Source: Natrialbaceae archaeon Tc-Br11_E2g14
GTDB taxonomy: Archaea > Halobacteriota > Halobacteria > Halobacteriales > Natrialbaceae
Assembly (NCBI GenBank): GCA_001564275.1
Contig: LKND01000004.1
Coordinates: 2,419 to 66,418, forward strand
Direction: 5' to 3'
DNA length: 64,000 bases
Shown here: positions 23,556 to 26,925 of the stretch, piece after piece
Position numbering within the stretch: position 1 is the stretch's first letter
How the letters are laid out: every line of letters begins with the position of its first letter
Made by a program: the position numbers and the translations under genes
The notes under the pieces: model-generated
What the model was told of the DNA's origin: nothing
The model's input: only the letters and a program-made list of their open reading frames with translations
Databases searched by the model: none

Positions 23556-24890
23556 ACGAAACCGTGACCCGGCAGCTACCTAAGCGTTCTCAATGCGGCC
23601 GGTTTCTCGAGGAATCCTGACTGGATTCTCGTGGATATGTGGGTTACGGCGGCGGCTATTTCTGTGGAACGTGAGCTCCATAGCCACCAGTTACTGGTGA
23701 CATAGATGCAATTCTCTCGCGGAGATTCGGTATAGCATCATAGGATATATGTGGTTGGCACAATCCGGATGTCGAGGCCAGTCAGTAGTCTGGATCGAGT
23801 TGTCATGAGAAATAGTAGCACAGACCTGGCCAGGGACTACCCGGGGCCTCGAGCCACGAGCAACCGCCGTAGTTGCCCCACCGGCCAACCCGTGTGTCAC
23901 CGACCTCCTCACGGACTGCTATTCAGTGCCACCGTTGGGCCATGATCGACCCGGCAGCCCTCGAGGGCACGACTCTCGAGAGGTCCGCCCCAGACGGGAC
24001 TACCGGACCACAGTACGTTCGTCGGGCGAACGGGGGTTGATCGGCCCCGACAGCTGTCGACGCCAGTGACCCCTGTCAGCGGCCGGTGGTGAGTGATGAA
24101 CCCCACTGCAGTGTGTGATACCTGGGGGGTCGTGGCCACGTAAGCAGTATCCACCCTTCGAAAGGATTCATCCGGTCCAGATGGTGTTCTGGCCAGTGAC
24201 TGGAACAAACCGAGGAGCGAGCTGGCCCCCACACGGTTGGCGGAGTGGCGAGCAGTGACTGACAGGTGCCACGGTCACTCGAGCCGCAACTCGGTCAGCG
24301 TACACATCGGCCTCAATGATGAACGCGGGCCGAGGACTCGAGTCCGAACCAACGGTCAAAGCAGCGCCTGCAAGCGCCTGTTGGGCACTCGAGTGGCTCA
24401 GGCAAAGGAATATGTAGAAGCCAAATAGAAGCGACGAGAGGCGGTCTGAGGCGGCGGTGACTGGGGTCAGTCGTGACCCTACGTAGATGGTCACAAGTTA
24501 CAGTCGAAACGACGTTTGGACCGTGAACGGGATCGCGTCCAGTCGATCACGTCCACCCACTGTGGATGTATGCGAGCGGTTTCGCCTGCGGGGCCAGCCA
24601 GACGACTCACCCCCGAATACGGGTCGCGGCCCAGTATCAACGCCCCGAGAGATATCTCGGCTTCGATGAGGCCAGCACACGACTCGCCACGAGATCGGCC
24701 TCGGGAACGGTTCGAGCCGAACGGGGCCATGGGCAGTTCGCTCCAATCGCAGGTATTCCACCAAGCTGGGGGCGGTTTCCAATCTCAACTGGTGGGGCTA
24801 GTTTCGTAACACAGTAATCCCAACTCACAGTATATTGGGGCCGTTAATCTGAGTTCAGAAGCTTATTGATCCGGTATTTTTGGTCCTACT

Positions 24891-24918
24891 ATTCCAGATA
24901 AGGGCTTTTATCTCGAGT
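24891..24918. other. Candidate dif-like Xer recombination site ATTCCAGATAA-GGGCTT-TTATCTCGAGT
   Basis: 11-6-11 inverted repeat, 9/11 arm symmetry, ATAA-N6-TTAT core, 40 bp upstream of DUF5805-xerA; also overlaps the likely BRE/TATA. Confidence 0.45.
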
Positions 24919-24958
24919 AACAGTGACTTTGATACTCCTCCGGTACAGACGGTCACCC

Positions 24959-25351
24959 ATGAGTGAGAGTTCGGCCACCGAGACCGTCGTCGTCAGGACG
25001 TACGTCCCAGCGTATCAAAAATCGCGCTGGGAGTCCCACGCAGACGACCTCGAGATGAGCCAGTCCGAGTATATCAGAACCATGGTACAAGCGGGGCGAA
25101 AGGGGTTCGAATCCGACGACGAGGAACCCCGTTCTCCGGACGCTACCCCTGGGGGTAGCGACCTCGAAACACAGGTCCTCGACTTGCTTTCTTCCGGCAC
25201 GTACAATTGGGAAGAATTATTGGCCACCGTAAGCGACGATATCGAAGGCCAACTCGAGGATGCCCTCGATACGCTGCAAGCTCAGGATCAGGTTCGGTAC
25301 AGCGGTCGCCACGGTGGGTACGTCCGGACGGGTGAGACGGATGGCAACTGA
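24959..25351 (+). CDS. DUF5805-like protein (RHH-like N-terminus, winged-helix-like C-terminus)
   Basis: VVRTYVPAYQK...MSQSEYIRTMVQAGR; overlaps the xerA start. Confidence 0.8.
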   Translation: MSESSATETVVVRTYVPAYQKSRWESHADDLEMSQSEYIRTMVQAGRKGFESDDEEPRSPDATPGGSDLETQVLDLLSSGTYNWEELLATVSDDIEGQLEDALDTLQAQDQVRYSGRHGGYVRTGETDGN

Positions 25352-26381
25352 GGCCGGTGCCAGCGAGGTCGCTCCCGAGGACCCCATTGGGTACTTCCTC
25401 GAGGAACAGGAGTTCCACGGCAAGAGTGAACGGACCCTCGAAGCCTACGAGCGAGTGCTCAGACGGTTCGAGACCTTCGTCGAGACCGAACACGACGTGA
25501 GCCCCGCGAGGGCCGGTCGCCGTGAGTGTATGGCCTGGGTACACTCACTCCGGGGCACCCTCGAGACCAGCACGATCGCCACCTACGCCTCCTACGTCCA
25601 CCGGTTTTACGAGTACATGACCCGTGTGGAGGCGTTCGACGGCAATCCGATGTCCCTCGTGATGGAGGAGATGGGCGAATCGATCGAGACGAACCCCACG
25701 CGCCGGGAGATCACGGTCCCGGAGATGCGATCCTTTGTCGGTTCGATCGCGCATCCACTCGAGCGAGCGGTGATCGTCACCCTGTTGAAAACCGGCATGC
25801 GGGTGGGTGAACTCTGCAATCTCGATCTACAGGATTGTCACTTCGATACGGGGCGTGTCGACCTCGAGTGGACGCCACGAATCCAACTCGAGCACCGACC
25901 ACGATCGCTATACGTGGCCGACGAACCGGCCGTCGGGACGGTCGTCAACGGAGAGGAGCGAACGGCCTCGAACAAGCGAAAACGCCCGACGGTGGTCCCC
26001 GTCGACGGGGAGTTACAGGCGGCCCTCGAGCCGTGGCTCGCCATCCGCCCGGACCCGGTGTCACCTGCCGATCCGCTATTCCTCGACACGGGCGACAGCT
26101 GGGGGGAGCGCCTCGAGCCCTCGGACGTACGCTATATCGTCGAGCGCCATGCCCGGCGGGAGGGCTGGTATCGAACTGGCGGTGGCGCGAGTGAGAACGT
26201 GACGCCCCATTACTTCCGGCACTTTTTCACGACCCATCTTCGTGATCGGACGGGCGACCGGGGTGTGGTAAAGTACCTGCGAGGGGACGTTGCGAACGAC
26301 GTCATCGACACCTATACCCACGACTGGGGCGATCAGGTGCGGTCGGTCTACGAGTCGAACGTGTACTCGATCGTGCCGTAG
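25341..26381 (+). CDS. xerA: Tyrosine recombinase, XerA/XerC-like
   Basis: TGMRVGEL (R), SNKRK (K), PHYFRH (HxxR) and DTYTH (Y). Confidence 0.85.
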   Translation: MATEAGASEVAPEDPIGYFLEEQEFHGKSERTLEAYERVLRRFETFVETEHDVSPARAGRRECMAWVHSLRGTLETSTIATYASYVHRFYEYMTRVEAFDGNPMSLVMEEMGESIETNPTRREITVPEMRSFVGSIAHPLERAVIVTLLKTGMRVGELCNLDLQDCHFDTGRVDLEWTPRIQLEHRPRSLYVADEPAVGTVVNGEERTASNKRKRPTVVPVDGELQAALEPWLAIRPDPVSPADPLFLDTGDSWGERLEPSDVRYIVERHARREGWYRTGGGASENVTPHYFRHFFTTHLRDRTGDRGVVKYLRGDVANDVIDTYTHDWGDQVRSVYESNVYSIVP

Positions 26382-26802
26382 GAATCTTTCAGCATTGCCC
26401 TCCCGAAAACCATTGCGAACTATGTCCGATCGCCACCGTATAAATTCTATAGTGCTATATTGAATTCTTTCACGATCCACAGGTGATTCTGCTCTGCGCG
26501 GGTAGATGTGTACGTGGTATTGAGAACCTCGATTGCTCCTGTAACCTCCATTTCCACGGTGTTGACGTGGTAGCGGGCACCCGAGCCACGAATGGTGTAA
26601 CGTGAGCGCATCAGTGTGAGGGCGGTGATTGACGTGGGAGTATCACGGCACGGATAAAGCGGTCCGGGGTATCAGACTCTCGACCTGCGTATGCTGGCCA
26701 GTGGGTCACCAGGTCGTGGAGGTGATGATAGTTGGAGGCCCGAACCACCCGCGAGCGTATTCATCGAGTCGGATCACCTGTGTGAAAGGACCATTTCATG
26801 TA

Positions 26803-26919
26803 CTATAGTAGCCACTGAGTGACATTGCACACACCCTCACGATACCATGGCGCAAAACCGGTGACAAACCGGTTCTGAGGCGTCTCGGAGGGTATAATTC
26901 GGTTCAGTTGTTACTCTAG
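26803..26919 (-). mobile_element. Palindromic MITE-like repeat, copy 2
   Basis: CTATAGTAGCCA...GTTACTCTAG; its reverse complement is close to the copy at 30413. Confidence 0.8.
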
Positions 26920-26925
26920 AGGGAC

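Follow-up and report, generated by a model that had tools for sequence, protein, structure and literature searches.

A putative Xer/dif-type resolution module of Halobacteria, with a dif-like site at a fixed distance from the promoter of a DUF5805-recombinase operon

The stretch of DNA analyzed here, referred to as the window, comprises 64 kb of a Natrialbaceae archaeon genome and contains a short palindromic site followed by a two-gene operon. The site, ATTCCAGATAA-GGGCTT-TTATCTCGAGT (24891..24918, no strand assigned), is a 28-bp dif-like core site with 11-bp imperfect inverted arms and an asymmetric 6-bp spacer. Its invariant core consists of ATAA (24898-24901) and TTAT (24908-24911), which enclose the spacer GGGCTT (24902-24907). 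A repeat search of the window returned 12-nt arms, 83% complementary, around a 6-nt spacer at this position; both this search and the sequence itself confirm the 11-6-11 inverted repeat with an ATAA-N6-TTAT core that a sequence-only reading had placed at 24891-24918. The predicted promoter of a leaderless operon follows (24919..24958, plus strand), recognized by a motif whose spacing from both site and ATG is constant in orthologous loci. The first gene of the operon encodes a 130-aa DUF5805 protein (24959..25351, plus strand; PF19121), and the second encodes a 346-aa Xer-family tyrosine recombinase (25341..26381, plus strand; PF00589, PF02899, PF13495), the start of which overlaps the DUF5805 stop by 11 nt. 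Because the DUF5805 gene starts at 24959 and the site ends at 24918, the gap from site to ATG is 40 nt, and the coordinates bear out the earlier description of a site 40 nt 5' of an overlapping two-gene unit. A strain-specific, ORF-poor block of ~1.3 kb (23556..24890, no strand assigned), with no homologue in relatives, abuts the left arm.

GATAA-N6-TTATC occurs once in the 64-kb window versus zero times in 100 dinucleotide-preserving shuffles. It occurs twice in the 3.16-Mb assembly, the second copy being within a transducer-like ORF, such that the site is present as one intergenic copy in an assembly that is 91% complete. No other copy of the full site, or of an arm plus spacer, was found in the assembly. 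Candidate second or hybrid sites were rejected: matches C90 and C132 are inside coding sequence, and C11, located 5' of another integrase, matches only in part.

The recombinase is composed of a SAM-like N-terminal domain and a catalytic domain with an insertion of ~40 aa. Alignment with P. abyssi XerA identifies the catalytic residues R154, K212/K214, H290, R293, and Y325, in keeping with the intact R-K-HxxR-Y set previously noticed. The usual second His/Trp is D316, leaving five of six catalytic positions canonical. The best PDB match is P. abyssi XerA (4A8E, E 1.9e-10); E. coli XerD and T. acidophilum XerA are the other top relatives of solved structure. The top NCBIfam match, XerA_Arch (NF040815), scores 115.8 bits, below the equivalog cut-off of 220 bits, and "xerA" is therefore a family-level label and not the name of a demonstrated ortholog. 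The gene is the sole strong XerA_Arch match in the genome, all others scoring at most 31 bits, and no gene genome-wide reaches the 220-bit cut-off. The earlier naming of the gene as xerA thus holds insofar as it is the only core Xer-like gene in the genome and P. abyssi XerA is its best characterized relative, but fails at the equivalog cut-off. The H. volcanii recombinase, HVO_1620, is not among the four xerC/D-like genes reported deleted in that species.

The recombinase was found in 39 of 41 relatives and is single-copy in all 31 high-quality genomes of the order (53-84% identity). Identity drops with taxonomic distance, from 78-84% within the genus to 60-78% within the family and 53-68% within the order. 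DUF5805 is absent from the phage collection and appears in only three plasmid records, two of which are ~1-Mb replicons. A mobile-element integrase was rejected on these grounds, the gene being single-copy, universal, and tracking taxonomy. Judged from these comparisons, the DUF5805-recombinase module is apparently vertically inherited across the class. Paralogous modules, each with a ribbon-helix-helix (RHH)/winged-helix gene and an Xer-like gene, are present in the same genus; their upstream repeats are divergent, and no att duplicates were found around the paralogous module in the genus.

The DUF5805 protein matches PF19121 with 92.6 bits (Pfam gathering cut-off, 28.5). It has an N-terminal RHH-like segment, an acidic linker, and a C-terminal winged-helix-like domain, and a profile search gave a weak match to the MCM4 winged helix. 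The N-terminus reads as a strand-like VVVRTYVP followed by two helices, and the AF2 monomer model (pLDDT 65.6) contains no strand there. The model has helices at residues 18-30 and 35-44, disorder at 45-67, helices at 68-79 and 84-108, and a beta hairpin at 112-123. A Foldseek search with the model returned nothing significant, the weak RHH and winged-helix matches including VapB/NikA at E of at least 1, and a Pfam search of the protein gave no match to an RHH family. DUF5805 is present in 298 of 301 Halobacteria, and in 29 of 30 loci its gene immediately precedes that of the recombinase, which makes it an obligate operon partner, in support of the partnership proposed earlier. Lineages without PF19121 were rejected as a natural test of the loss of DUF5805 because they still carry a diverged RHH gene. 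A stand-alone DUF5805 gene, without the recombinase, is found near parA on a Halobaculum plasmid, and no upstream palindrome of the dif-like type accompanies it. A literature search found no paper on DUF5805, HVO_1619, or HVO_1620.

The site is conserved with the operon. Of 113 upstream regions, 103 contain ATAA-N6-TTAT, in most cases with its first base at -61 to -63 relative to the ATG. In these 103 loci, a potential recombination site lies beside the recombinase operon at the same offset as the 40 nt seen here. Symmetry was assessed with 72 dereplicated orthologous sites. Although each outer arm base differs among sites, the arms remain symmetric: 219 of 504 cells are complementary with the true partner, versus 83-143 when the partner is slid by one to four columns. 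Complementarity is seen in 37 of 72 sequences for the arm pair (-3,16), versus 22.5 in shuffles, and in 34 of 72 for the pair (-5,18), versus 22.2 in shuffles. The 6-bp spacer is without symmetry, being palindromic in 0 of 72. The symmetric arms reach at least 9 bp, which together with the asymmetric 6-bp spacer is the geometry of a tyrosine-recombinase core site. The alignments across Halobacteria thus answer the question of whether the TATA-side half alone is conserved; both arms are, and the 6-bp spacing between them does not change. None of 301 genomes has more than one copy of the strict consensus AGATAA-N6-TTATCT, and at least 13 of its 22 occurrences adjoin a listed DUF5805 gene by coordinate comparison. 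On secondary replicons, additional consensus sites are no more frequent than a control pattern and were rejected as evidence for dif; the contexts of a perfect palindrome on pHV3 and of one in Haloferax sp. are non-homologous to each other. Two divergent lineages (f11 and f12) have a different palindrome, TCTAACGTTAGA, which directly abuts the ATG.

The position of the site relative to the promoter is established by published H. volcanii data. In dRNA-seq, the transcription start site (TSS) coincides with the first base of HVO_1619 (1486496), giving a 5'UTR of 0, and a TATA box is present at -28 (PMC4983044 supplement). The H. volcanii site is located at chromosome 1486431-1486448, and with a leaderless mRNA and TATA at -28 the palindrome therefore spans -65 to -48, upstream of BRE/TATA. 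These data do not support the sequence-only view that the site overlaps BRE/TATA, and the palindrome does not lie over BRE/TATA or the TSS as expected of an RHH operator. The same layout probably holds in the window, where a TATA-like box, ACTTTGATAC, at ~24926-24935 (-33 to -24) can be aligned to tGGG-N2-3-AGATTGAAGG, a motif conserved in the orthologous loci. The TSS in the window is predicted to be the A of the ATG at 24959.

These features suggest a self-contained Xer/dif-type resolution module in which the site doubles as a phased upstream promoter element and DUF5805 is a DNA-binding partner, a reading to which we give about an even chance of being correct. Recombinase monomers, one per arm, would bind the site through the invariant inner ATAA and TTAT, and cleavage and strand exchange would occur at the borders of the asymmetric 6-bp spacer. 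A dimeric chromosome with two directly repeated sites would be resolved to monomers. DUF5805, presumably coupled to the recombinase in translation, may serve as a DNA-binding accessory or control factor, comparable to the small wHTH proteins that aid the haloarchaeal SNJ2 integrase. Since the site is at a strictly fixed distance upstream of BRE/TATA, its occupancy may also set the expression of both operon genes, and the layout would then resemble that of classic resolution modules, in which the res site is in the promoter region of the resolvase. Its universal conservation would also let some proviruses adopt the site for attachment. Several points weigh against a resolution module. A site kept strictly at one distance from the promoter points to regulation, for which a pure dif site has no need; the recombinase scores below the XerA cut-off; and D316 stands in place of the His/Trp of Xer enzymes. 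In addition, palindromes 5' of RHH genes are usually the operators of those genes. The module is the best candidate yet for dimer separation in haloarchaea, with the action of the recombinase on the site being putative.

A bolder proposal can be put forward tentatively, as one that is possible but rather doubtful: HVO_1619/HVO_1620 and the site at 1486431-1486448 would be the long-sought haloarchaeal dif together with the Xer that actually resolves dimers. In contrast to all Xer systems described, this one would require a dedicated RHH/winged-helix partner, which would replace control by FtsK and couple site occupancy to operon expression. The site would also be a class-wide landing pad for proviruses and accessory DNA. 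If true, DUF5805 would represent a new class of accessory protein (RHH plus winged helix) for Xer systems, and it would be explained why genome plasticity and provirus integration recur at one site in haloarchaea. Archaeal chromosome biology is studied genetically mainly in H. volcanii and its relatives. With a universal single-copy recombinase singled out, along with its invariant partner and a precisely defined 28-bp candidate target whose promoter is mapped, dimer resolution in polyploid, multi-origin archaea is directly testable with existing H. volcanii tools.

The module resembles the archaeal XerA/dif systems of P. abyssi, T. acidophilum, and Sulfolobus in having a single Xer-family tyrosine recombinase, a 28-bp 11-6-11 imperfect palindrome, one site per chromosome, and no FtsK. 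The validated P. abyssi dif is ATTGGATATAA-TCGGCC-TTATATCTAAA (PMC2958812); it has the same inner ATAA/TTAT and 6-bp spacing, and 15 of 22 arm positions are identical to those of the dif-like site. In Sulfolobus, the predicted dif is close to xerA, as in the haloarchaeal module. Unlike those systems, the haloarchaeal protein falls below the equivalog cut-off and has the ~40-aa catalytic-domain insertion and D316, a putative RHH/winged-helix gene always precedes and overlaps the recombinase gene, and the site is phased with the promoter. The xer genes adjoin dif sites in XerS/difSL, XerH/difH, Sulfolobus, and some other archaea (PMC5357621; PMC2958812). XerS/difSL of streptococci and XerH/difH of epsilon-proteobacteria are likewise portable modules in which the site adjoins the gene for a single recombinase and is a slightly asymmetric palindrome. 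However, they are FtsK-dependent, lack an RHH partner, and have other arm sequences and spacers (the difSL spacer is 11 bp). A haloarchaeal precedent for accessory proteins is the operon of SNJ2, in which the gene for the tyrosine integrase is co-transcribed with small overlapping genes located 5' of it (products Orf2 and Orf3) that promote recombination, one of them encoding a winged-helix (wHTH) DNA binder (PMC5861418). SNJ2 Int, however, is a pleolipovirus integrase directed at a tRNA gene; it works with accessory proteins other than DUF5805 and belongs to a family separate from that of the core Xer-like gene.

Sites located 5' of a recombinase gene that double as regulatory elements, with a palindromic core and an asymmetric spacer, are found in Tn3 (res/TnpR), Tn4430 (IRS/TnpI), F (ResD/rfsF), and P1 (Cre/loxP). 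Those modules belong to plasmids, transposons, and phages, whereas the haloarchaeal module consists of chromosomal core genes of a whole class. Moreover, their sites lie over the promoter, whereas the haloarchaeal site is upstream of BRE/TATA.

The main, and serious, rival to a resolution module is that the palindrome is only an operator: a binding site for the putative RHH/winged-helix protein DUF5805, acting in autoregulation (activation or repression) from -56, with the target of the recombinase elsewhere. We consider this possible but less likely than a resolution module. It accounts for several features. The first gene has an RHH-like N-terminus, and a small RHH-type gene that opens an operon preceded by a palindrome is the arrangement of the RHH autoregulators (Arc, CopG, antitoxins, and the archaeal aCcr1 type). 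The distances from site to TATA and from site to ATG are invariant across the class, with variable bases between them. The centers of the half-sites are approximately one helical turn apart, as in Arc/CopG-type operators. DUF5805 occurs without the recombinase on the Halobaculum plasmid, the divergent RHH lineages have a different palindrome, and the upstream repeats of the paralogous modules have diverged. However, operators of RHH autoregulators normally overlap the promoter, whereas the haloarchaeal site is upstream of BRE/TATA, which would be unusual for an archaeal repressor, and has an Xer-type core, longer symmetric arms (at least 9 bp), and a 6-bp spacer free of constraint. An RHH operator has no reason to retain an invariant ATAA-N6-TTAT with the 6-bp spacing of a validated Xer site. 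The stand-alone plasmid gene also lacks such a palindrome, and two Natrinema genomes keep the operon after loss of the left arm.

In those two genomes, N. versiforme and N. pallidum, insertions are present with junctions exactly at the spacer; they provide two concrete cases for the integration hotspot hinted at in the sequence-only reading. In N. versiforme, attL (CTCGACATAA-ACTCAC-TTATCTCGG) and attR (TTTGCATTG-ACTCAC-TTAGATCGAAT) are 13.1 kb apart and bound a provirus-like element of that length. The element encodes its own 202-aa tyrosine integrase beside attL (PHROG 1/216, E 1e-14), which is unrelated to the Xer-like protein; the insertion therefore does not show Xer action, and the element is not an IMEX (an integrated element without its own recombinase). 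In N. pallidum, GAGATAA-ACTCAC-TATGATC and AACATTG-ACTCAC-TTAGCTC are 1.6 kb apart with conserved outer flanks. The DNA between them is non-coding, contains no genes, and shares the P arm CATTG with N. versiforme; it looks like the remnant of an integrated element. Both genomes have lost the promoter-proximal left arm and retain the operon, and N. versiforme regenerates the full palindrome 13 kb away. The small N. versiforme integrase was rejected as a general user of the site, as its homologues are at other loci in other genomes. A predicted attP (CATTGACTCACTTATC) gave only chance matches in IMG/VR, without homologous proteins. A search for arm-plus-spacer duplicates across 66 loci yielded N. 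pallidum as the only convincing case (L044 and L099 were at chance level). The block at 23556-24890 in the window is analogous to the 1.6-kb non-coding insert at the equivalent position in N. pallidum.

Flanking DNA bears on a second alternative, that the module is a domesticated or resident integrase cassette derived from a mobile element (attP-int plus an accessory gene) and now serves a different site-specific purpose, for example inversion or the capture or excision of neighboring accessory DNA, and not dimer resolution. Both flanks of the module are non-homologous even among congeners. Homology with congeners starts only at ~24780-24900, and the block at 23556-24890 has no homologue in 40 relatives, including ten congeners, and contains no ORF, tRNA, or Rfam match; it may be a remnant of DNA inserted at the dif-like site. 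No tRNA or Rfam family was found in the entire window, and a tRNA or ncRNA was rejected as the integration target. Paralogous modules within the genus are also consistent with a cassette, and integration roles are suspected for plasmid-borne haloarchaeal XerA genes (PMC13532300). The universal, single-copy, and vertical inheritance of the module across the class makes such an origin improbable, as do the absence of a second or hybrid site from the genome, the lack of a site array upstream, and the near absence of DUF5805 from plasmids and its absence from the phage collection. A centromere-like partition site bound by DUF5805 as a ParG/omega-type protein, with the recombinase merely co-expressed, is very improbable: the stand-alone DUF5805 gene near parA in Halobaculum and a perfect consensus palindrome just 3' of a parA-like pair on a secondary replicon of Haloferax would fit, but neither the window nor the orthologous loci examined have parA next to the module, the site is single in contrast to the iterated repeats typical of such centromeres, and extra palindromes are no commoner than the control pattern.

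Finally, the chromosomal position of a resolution module can be considered. Haloarchaea have several origins and broad termination zones. By locus-tag distance, HVO_1619/1620 are ~100 genes from oriC2 (Orc5 = HVO_1725), and the H. volcanii module would therefore lie outside a termination zone, a point against a resolution module. The GC skew of the window has no inversion. The Sulfolobus dif is likewise far from termination zones.

The window is haloarchaeal in character, with a GC content of 57-69% and acidic proteins, and named relatives assign it to the Natrialbaceae, close to Saliphagus and Natronosalvus. It harbors a dif-like site, ATTCCAGATAA-GGGCTT-TTATCTCGAGT (24891-24918), which ends 40 nt 5' of a gene encoding a 130-aa DUF5805 protein (24959-25351; PF19121, 92.6 bits). 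The next gene encodes a 346-aa tyrosine recombinase with PF00589 and SAM-like N-terminal domains (25341-26381), and its start overlaps the DUF5805 stop by 11 nt. The sequence, a repeat search (arms of 12 nt, 83% complementarity, 6 nt between) and the domain matches confirm this arrangement, which had been proposed in the sequence-only reading. GATAA-N6-TTATC occurs once in the 64-kb window and in 0 of 100 shuffles; the 3.16-Mb assembly has one further copy, within a transducer-like ORF, and no further copy of the full site or of an arm plus spacer.

The site is a class-wide feature. ATAA-N6-TTAT (or TTAG) is present in 103 of the 113 upstream regions gathered, with its start nearly always 61-63 nt 5' of the ATG. 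At a constant distance after it comes another conserved motif, tGGG-N2-3-AGATTGAAGG, whose end is approximately 24 nt before the ATG. Both arms, and not only the TATA half, are kept across Halobacteria with fixed 6-bp spacing, as had been predicted. In the 72 sequences left after dereplication, ATAA and TTAT are near-invariant, a figure partly owed to the selection step, although the fixed position is not. Next to this core, G(-1)/C(14) and A(-2)/T(15) show moderate conservation. Farther out, single arm positions are weakly informative, yet their complementarity is kept: pairing with the true partner gives 219 complementary cells out of 504, compared to 83-143 for partner columns displaced by 1-4. 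For pair (-3,16), 37 of 72 sequences are complementary versus 22.5 in shuffles (reached by 0 of 2000), and for pair (-5,18), 34 of 72 versus 22.2 (reached by 2 of 2000); kinship of the sequences inflates these shuffle statistics, and the slid-partner control, which preserves kinship, gave the same outcome. Lineage-specific variants show compensatory arm changes (TCGAGATAA...TTATCTCGA, CCGGGATAA...TTATCCCGG and CACAGATAA...TTATCTGTG). All three central pairs are random-like, and none of the 72 spacers is palindromic. The functional element therefore consists of symmetric arms of at least 9 bp around an asymmetric 6-bp spacer.

The recombinase has a single ortholog in each of the 31 high-quality genomes of the order, and its identity declines as taxonomic distance grows (78-84% within the genus, 53-68% within the order). 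Of 301 genomes from the class, 298 (78 of 80 genera) encode DUF5805, mostly once per genome, and in 29 of the 30 inspected loci its gene immediately precedes the recombinase. In the two families without a PF19121 match, a diverged RHH gene is still located 5' of the recombinase. DUF5805 was not found in the phage collection, and only three plasmid records contain it, two being replicons of about 1 Mb. A mobile-element integrase is therefore rejected, given a single-copy, order-wide gene whose identity follows taxonomy and whose partner is nearly absent from plasmids and phages. The recombinase is the sole good match to NCBIfam XerA_Arch in this genome (115.8 bits, others at most 31 bits), under the equivalog cut-off of 220 bits. 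Its nearest solved structures are Pyrococcus abyssi XerA (E 1.9e-10), E. coli XerD and T. acidophilum XerA. The catalytic residues R154, K212/K214, H290, R293 and Y325 are present, D316 occupies the second His/Trp position, and the catalytic domain has an insertion of approximately 40 aa. P. abyssi XerA was shown to bind and recombine the oligonucleotide ATTGGATATAA-TCGGCC-TTATATCTAAA (PMC2958812), which, aligned without gaps, is identical to the window site at 8/11 left-arm and 7/11 right-arm positions and has the same 6-bp spacing. Predicted Sulfolobus dif sites are close to xerA (PMC2958812), and xer-dif modules include XerS/difSL, XerH/difH and those of some archaea (PMC5357621). Known Xer sites were not found on haloarchaeal XerA-bearing plasmids (PMC13532300).

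The DUF5805 alignment has an invariant N-terminal pattern, V-x-T-Y-V-P-x-Y-Q-K-x-x-W ... M-S-Q-S-E-F-V-R-T-M-V-Q-A-G-R, compatible with strand-helix-helix, followed by a variable, acidic linker and then a conserved C-terminal domain. The AF2 model (pLDDT 65.6) predicts helices at 18-30 and 35-44, with a disordered linker leading to a helix-helix-beta-hairpin. Foldseek gave no significant match for this model; the weak ones were RHH proteins (VapB, NikA) and winged-helix domains, and Pfam gave a sub-threshold MCM4 winged-helix match. The proposed RHH plus winged-helix architecture is thus plausible, fitting the sequence pattern, but not established by these weak fold matches. SNJ2 offers a precedent from haloarchaea: its tyrosine-recombinase operon has small, overlapping accessory genes whose products, Orf2 and the wHTH protein Orf3, promote integration (PMC5861418).

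Insertions in Natrinema reveal use of the site. In N. pallidum the promoter-proximal site lacks its left arm (AACATTG-ACTCAC-TTAGCTC); the lost arm with the same spacer is found 1.6 kb upstream (GAGATAA-ACTCAC-TATGATC), across AT-rich non-coding DNA. N. altunense, with collinear outer flanks, has the intact site GAAGATAA-ACTCAC-TTAGCTC. N. versiforme JCM 10478 has the same right junction as N. pallidum (GCATTG-ACTCAC-TTAGATCG), with its counterpart 13,088 bp upstream (CTCGACATAA-ACTCAC-TTATCTCGG), and harbors a 13.1-kb provirus-like element in the site (NZ_AOID01000016.1, ~80,540-93,628) with ACTCACTTA as the direct repeat at its ends; attL once more forms a complete canonical palindrome. The matching junctions place the crossover inside ACTCAC(T), which is exactly the spacer. 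As judged from these junctions, the insertions show that the site can be used as a tyrosine-recombinase substrate and landing pad. The element encodes a phrog_29232 protein, a DUF7389 protein, a Gly/Ser/Asp-rich repeat protein and, adjoining attL, a 202-aa tyrosine-type integrase with only the catalytic domain (PHROG 1/216, E 1e-14). Since this enzyme bears no relation to the Xer-like protein and has homologues at other loci in other genomes, the insertion does not demonstrate action by the host enzyme.

The suggested integration hotspot gains modest support from the two Natrinema insertions and from the flanks in the window. Homology with congeneric genomes is limited to about 24780-26420, and in several species pairs it begins only a few bases from the left arm. 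The ORF-poor 1.3-kb block left of the site (23556-24890) has no homologue in 40 relatives. Congener homology stops about the recombinase stop codon, indicating that the right flank is variable too; approximately 540 bp of non-coding DNA (26382-26925) separates this codon from a convergent pyridine-nucleotide disulfide oxidoreductase gene.

The site had also been thought to overlap BRE/TATA, which is not borne out. The module of H. volcanii starts at 1486496, and in the dRNA-seq supplement of Babski et al. 2016 (PMC4983044) a forward-strand TSS for its DUF5805 gene, HVO_1619, is recorded at CHR 1486496 (coverage 371.87). The 5'UTR is given as 0 and the TATA box as -28, and the printed upstream sequence includes the palindrome GGATAACTTCTCTTATTC. 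The operon mRNA is therefore leaderless, with AGATTGAAT as the TATA region, and the palindrome occupies -65 to -48, 5' of BRE. Throughout the class the site keeps a constant distance to TATA while the intervening bases vary, which argues that whatever binds the site also communicates with the transcription machinery.

It is about an even call that the recombinase acts at the site, which also regulates the operon, with DUF5805 as partner. Several features speak for a Xer-type core site: its ATAA-N6-TTAT core is Xer-specific, arms and spacer have the matching geometry with compensatory arm changes, the site is unique in the genome and linked to the one core gene that is Xer-like, such modules have precedents, and the insertion junctions are precise at the spacer. 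Extra consensus sites on secondary replicons are genome-wide no commoner than a control pattern, and the H. volcanii module is about 100 genes from oriC2; both weigh neutral or against dif. A possible but doubtful alternative is that the palindrome is only an operator for DUF5805 and the recombinase acts elsewhere. In its favor, the first gene encodes a DNA binder, the site is strictly phased with the promoter, stand-alone DUF5805 genes exist, and lineages with a diverged RHH protein have a different palindrome. Minor rivals share the remaining weight. Operator and Xer-type core site are not, on this analysis, mutually exclusive. Resolution sites within the promoter region of their own recombinase gene are a classic design (Tn3 res, Tn4430 IRS and F rfsF). 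Xer/dif systems and xer-dif modules are already known. What appears to be new is a haloarchaeal version that spans the class and has a defined site, a partner of RHH/winged-helix type that is obligate, and the promoter phasing; nothing on these was found in the searchable literature, nor any mention of DUF5805, HVO_1619 or HVO_1620 (the H. volcanii recombinase gene).

In the window, CTCGAG at 24912 belongs to the conserved right arm (TTATCTCGAG), and the ORF-poor block has an inverted repeat with 11-nt arms at 24822-24855 (AACTCACAGTA / TAATCTGAGTT). The gene-free 1.6-kb insert splitting the N. pallidum DSM 3751 site at the spacer (contig_21, L072:1334-2960) is AT-rich with internal repeats, and near 2424 on the minus strand has a further site-like GAGATAA-ATATGG-TTAGCC, then TGAATAGTGG. 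Perfect AGATAA-N6-TTATCT palindromes occur in non-homologous contexts on secondary replicons of two Haloferax genomes (G061:C4:229746-229763, a pHV3-sized contig of H. volcanii, and G078:C3:110119-110136), one in AT-rich non-coding DNA and the other just 3' of a parA-like gene pair. A 149-kb plasmid of Halobaculum halophilum (NZ_CP058532.1, L117:3947-4333) contains a stand-alone DUF5805 gene, with no adjoining recombinase and no ATAA-N6-TTAT palindrome upstream; a gene of the ParA family is about 3 kb away. Most congeners, but not the window's assembly, contain a second, paralogous RHH/winged-helix and Xer-like module (47-49% identity; L162-L167, e.g. G008:C1:2354427-2356700). Its upstream repeat is degenerate, in some CATAAG-CCGTC-CTTAAC, and has no duplicate elsewhere in the genomes of the congeners carrying it. 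Finally, in families f11 and f12 (L139:1040-1057 and L140:1035-1055; genomes of ~2 Mb), the RHH partner has no PF19121 domain, and the canonical site gives way to a palindrome without a spacer, TCTAACGTTAGA (or CTAATGTTAGA), which ends 3-8 nt before the ATG and is preceded by a conserved CGTCTGACRAAGAT box.
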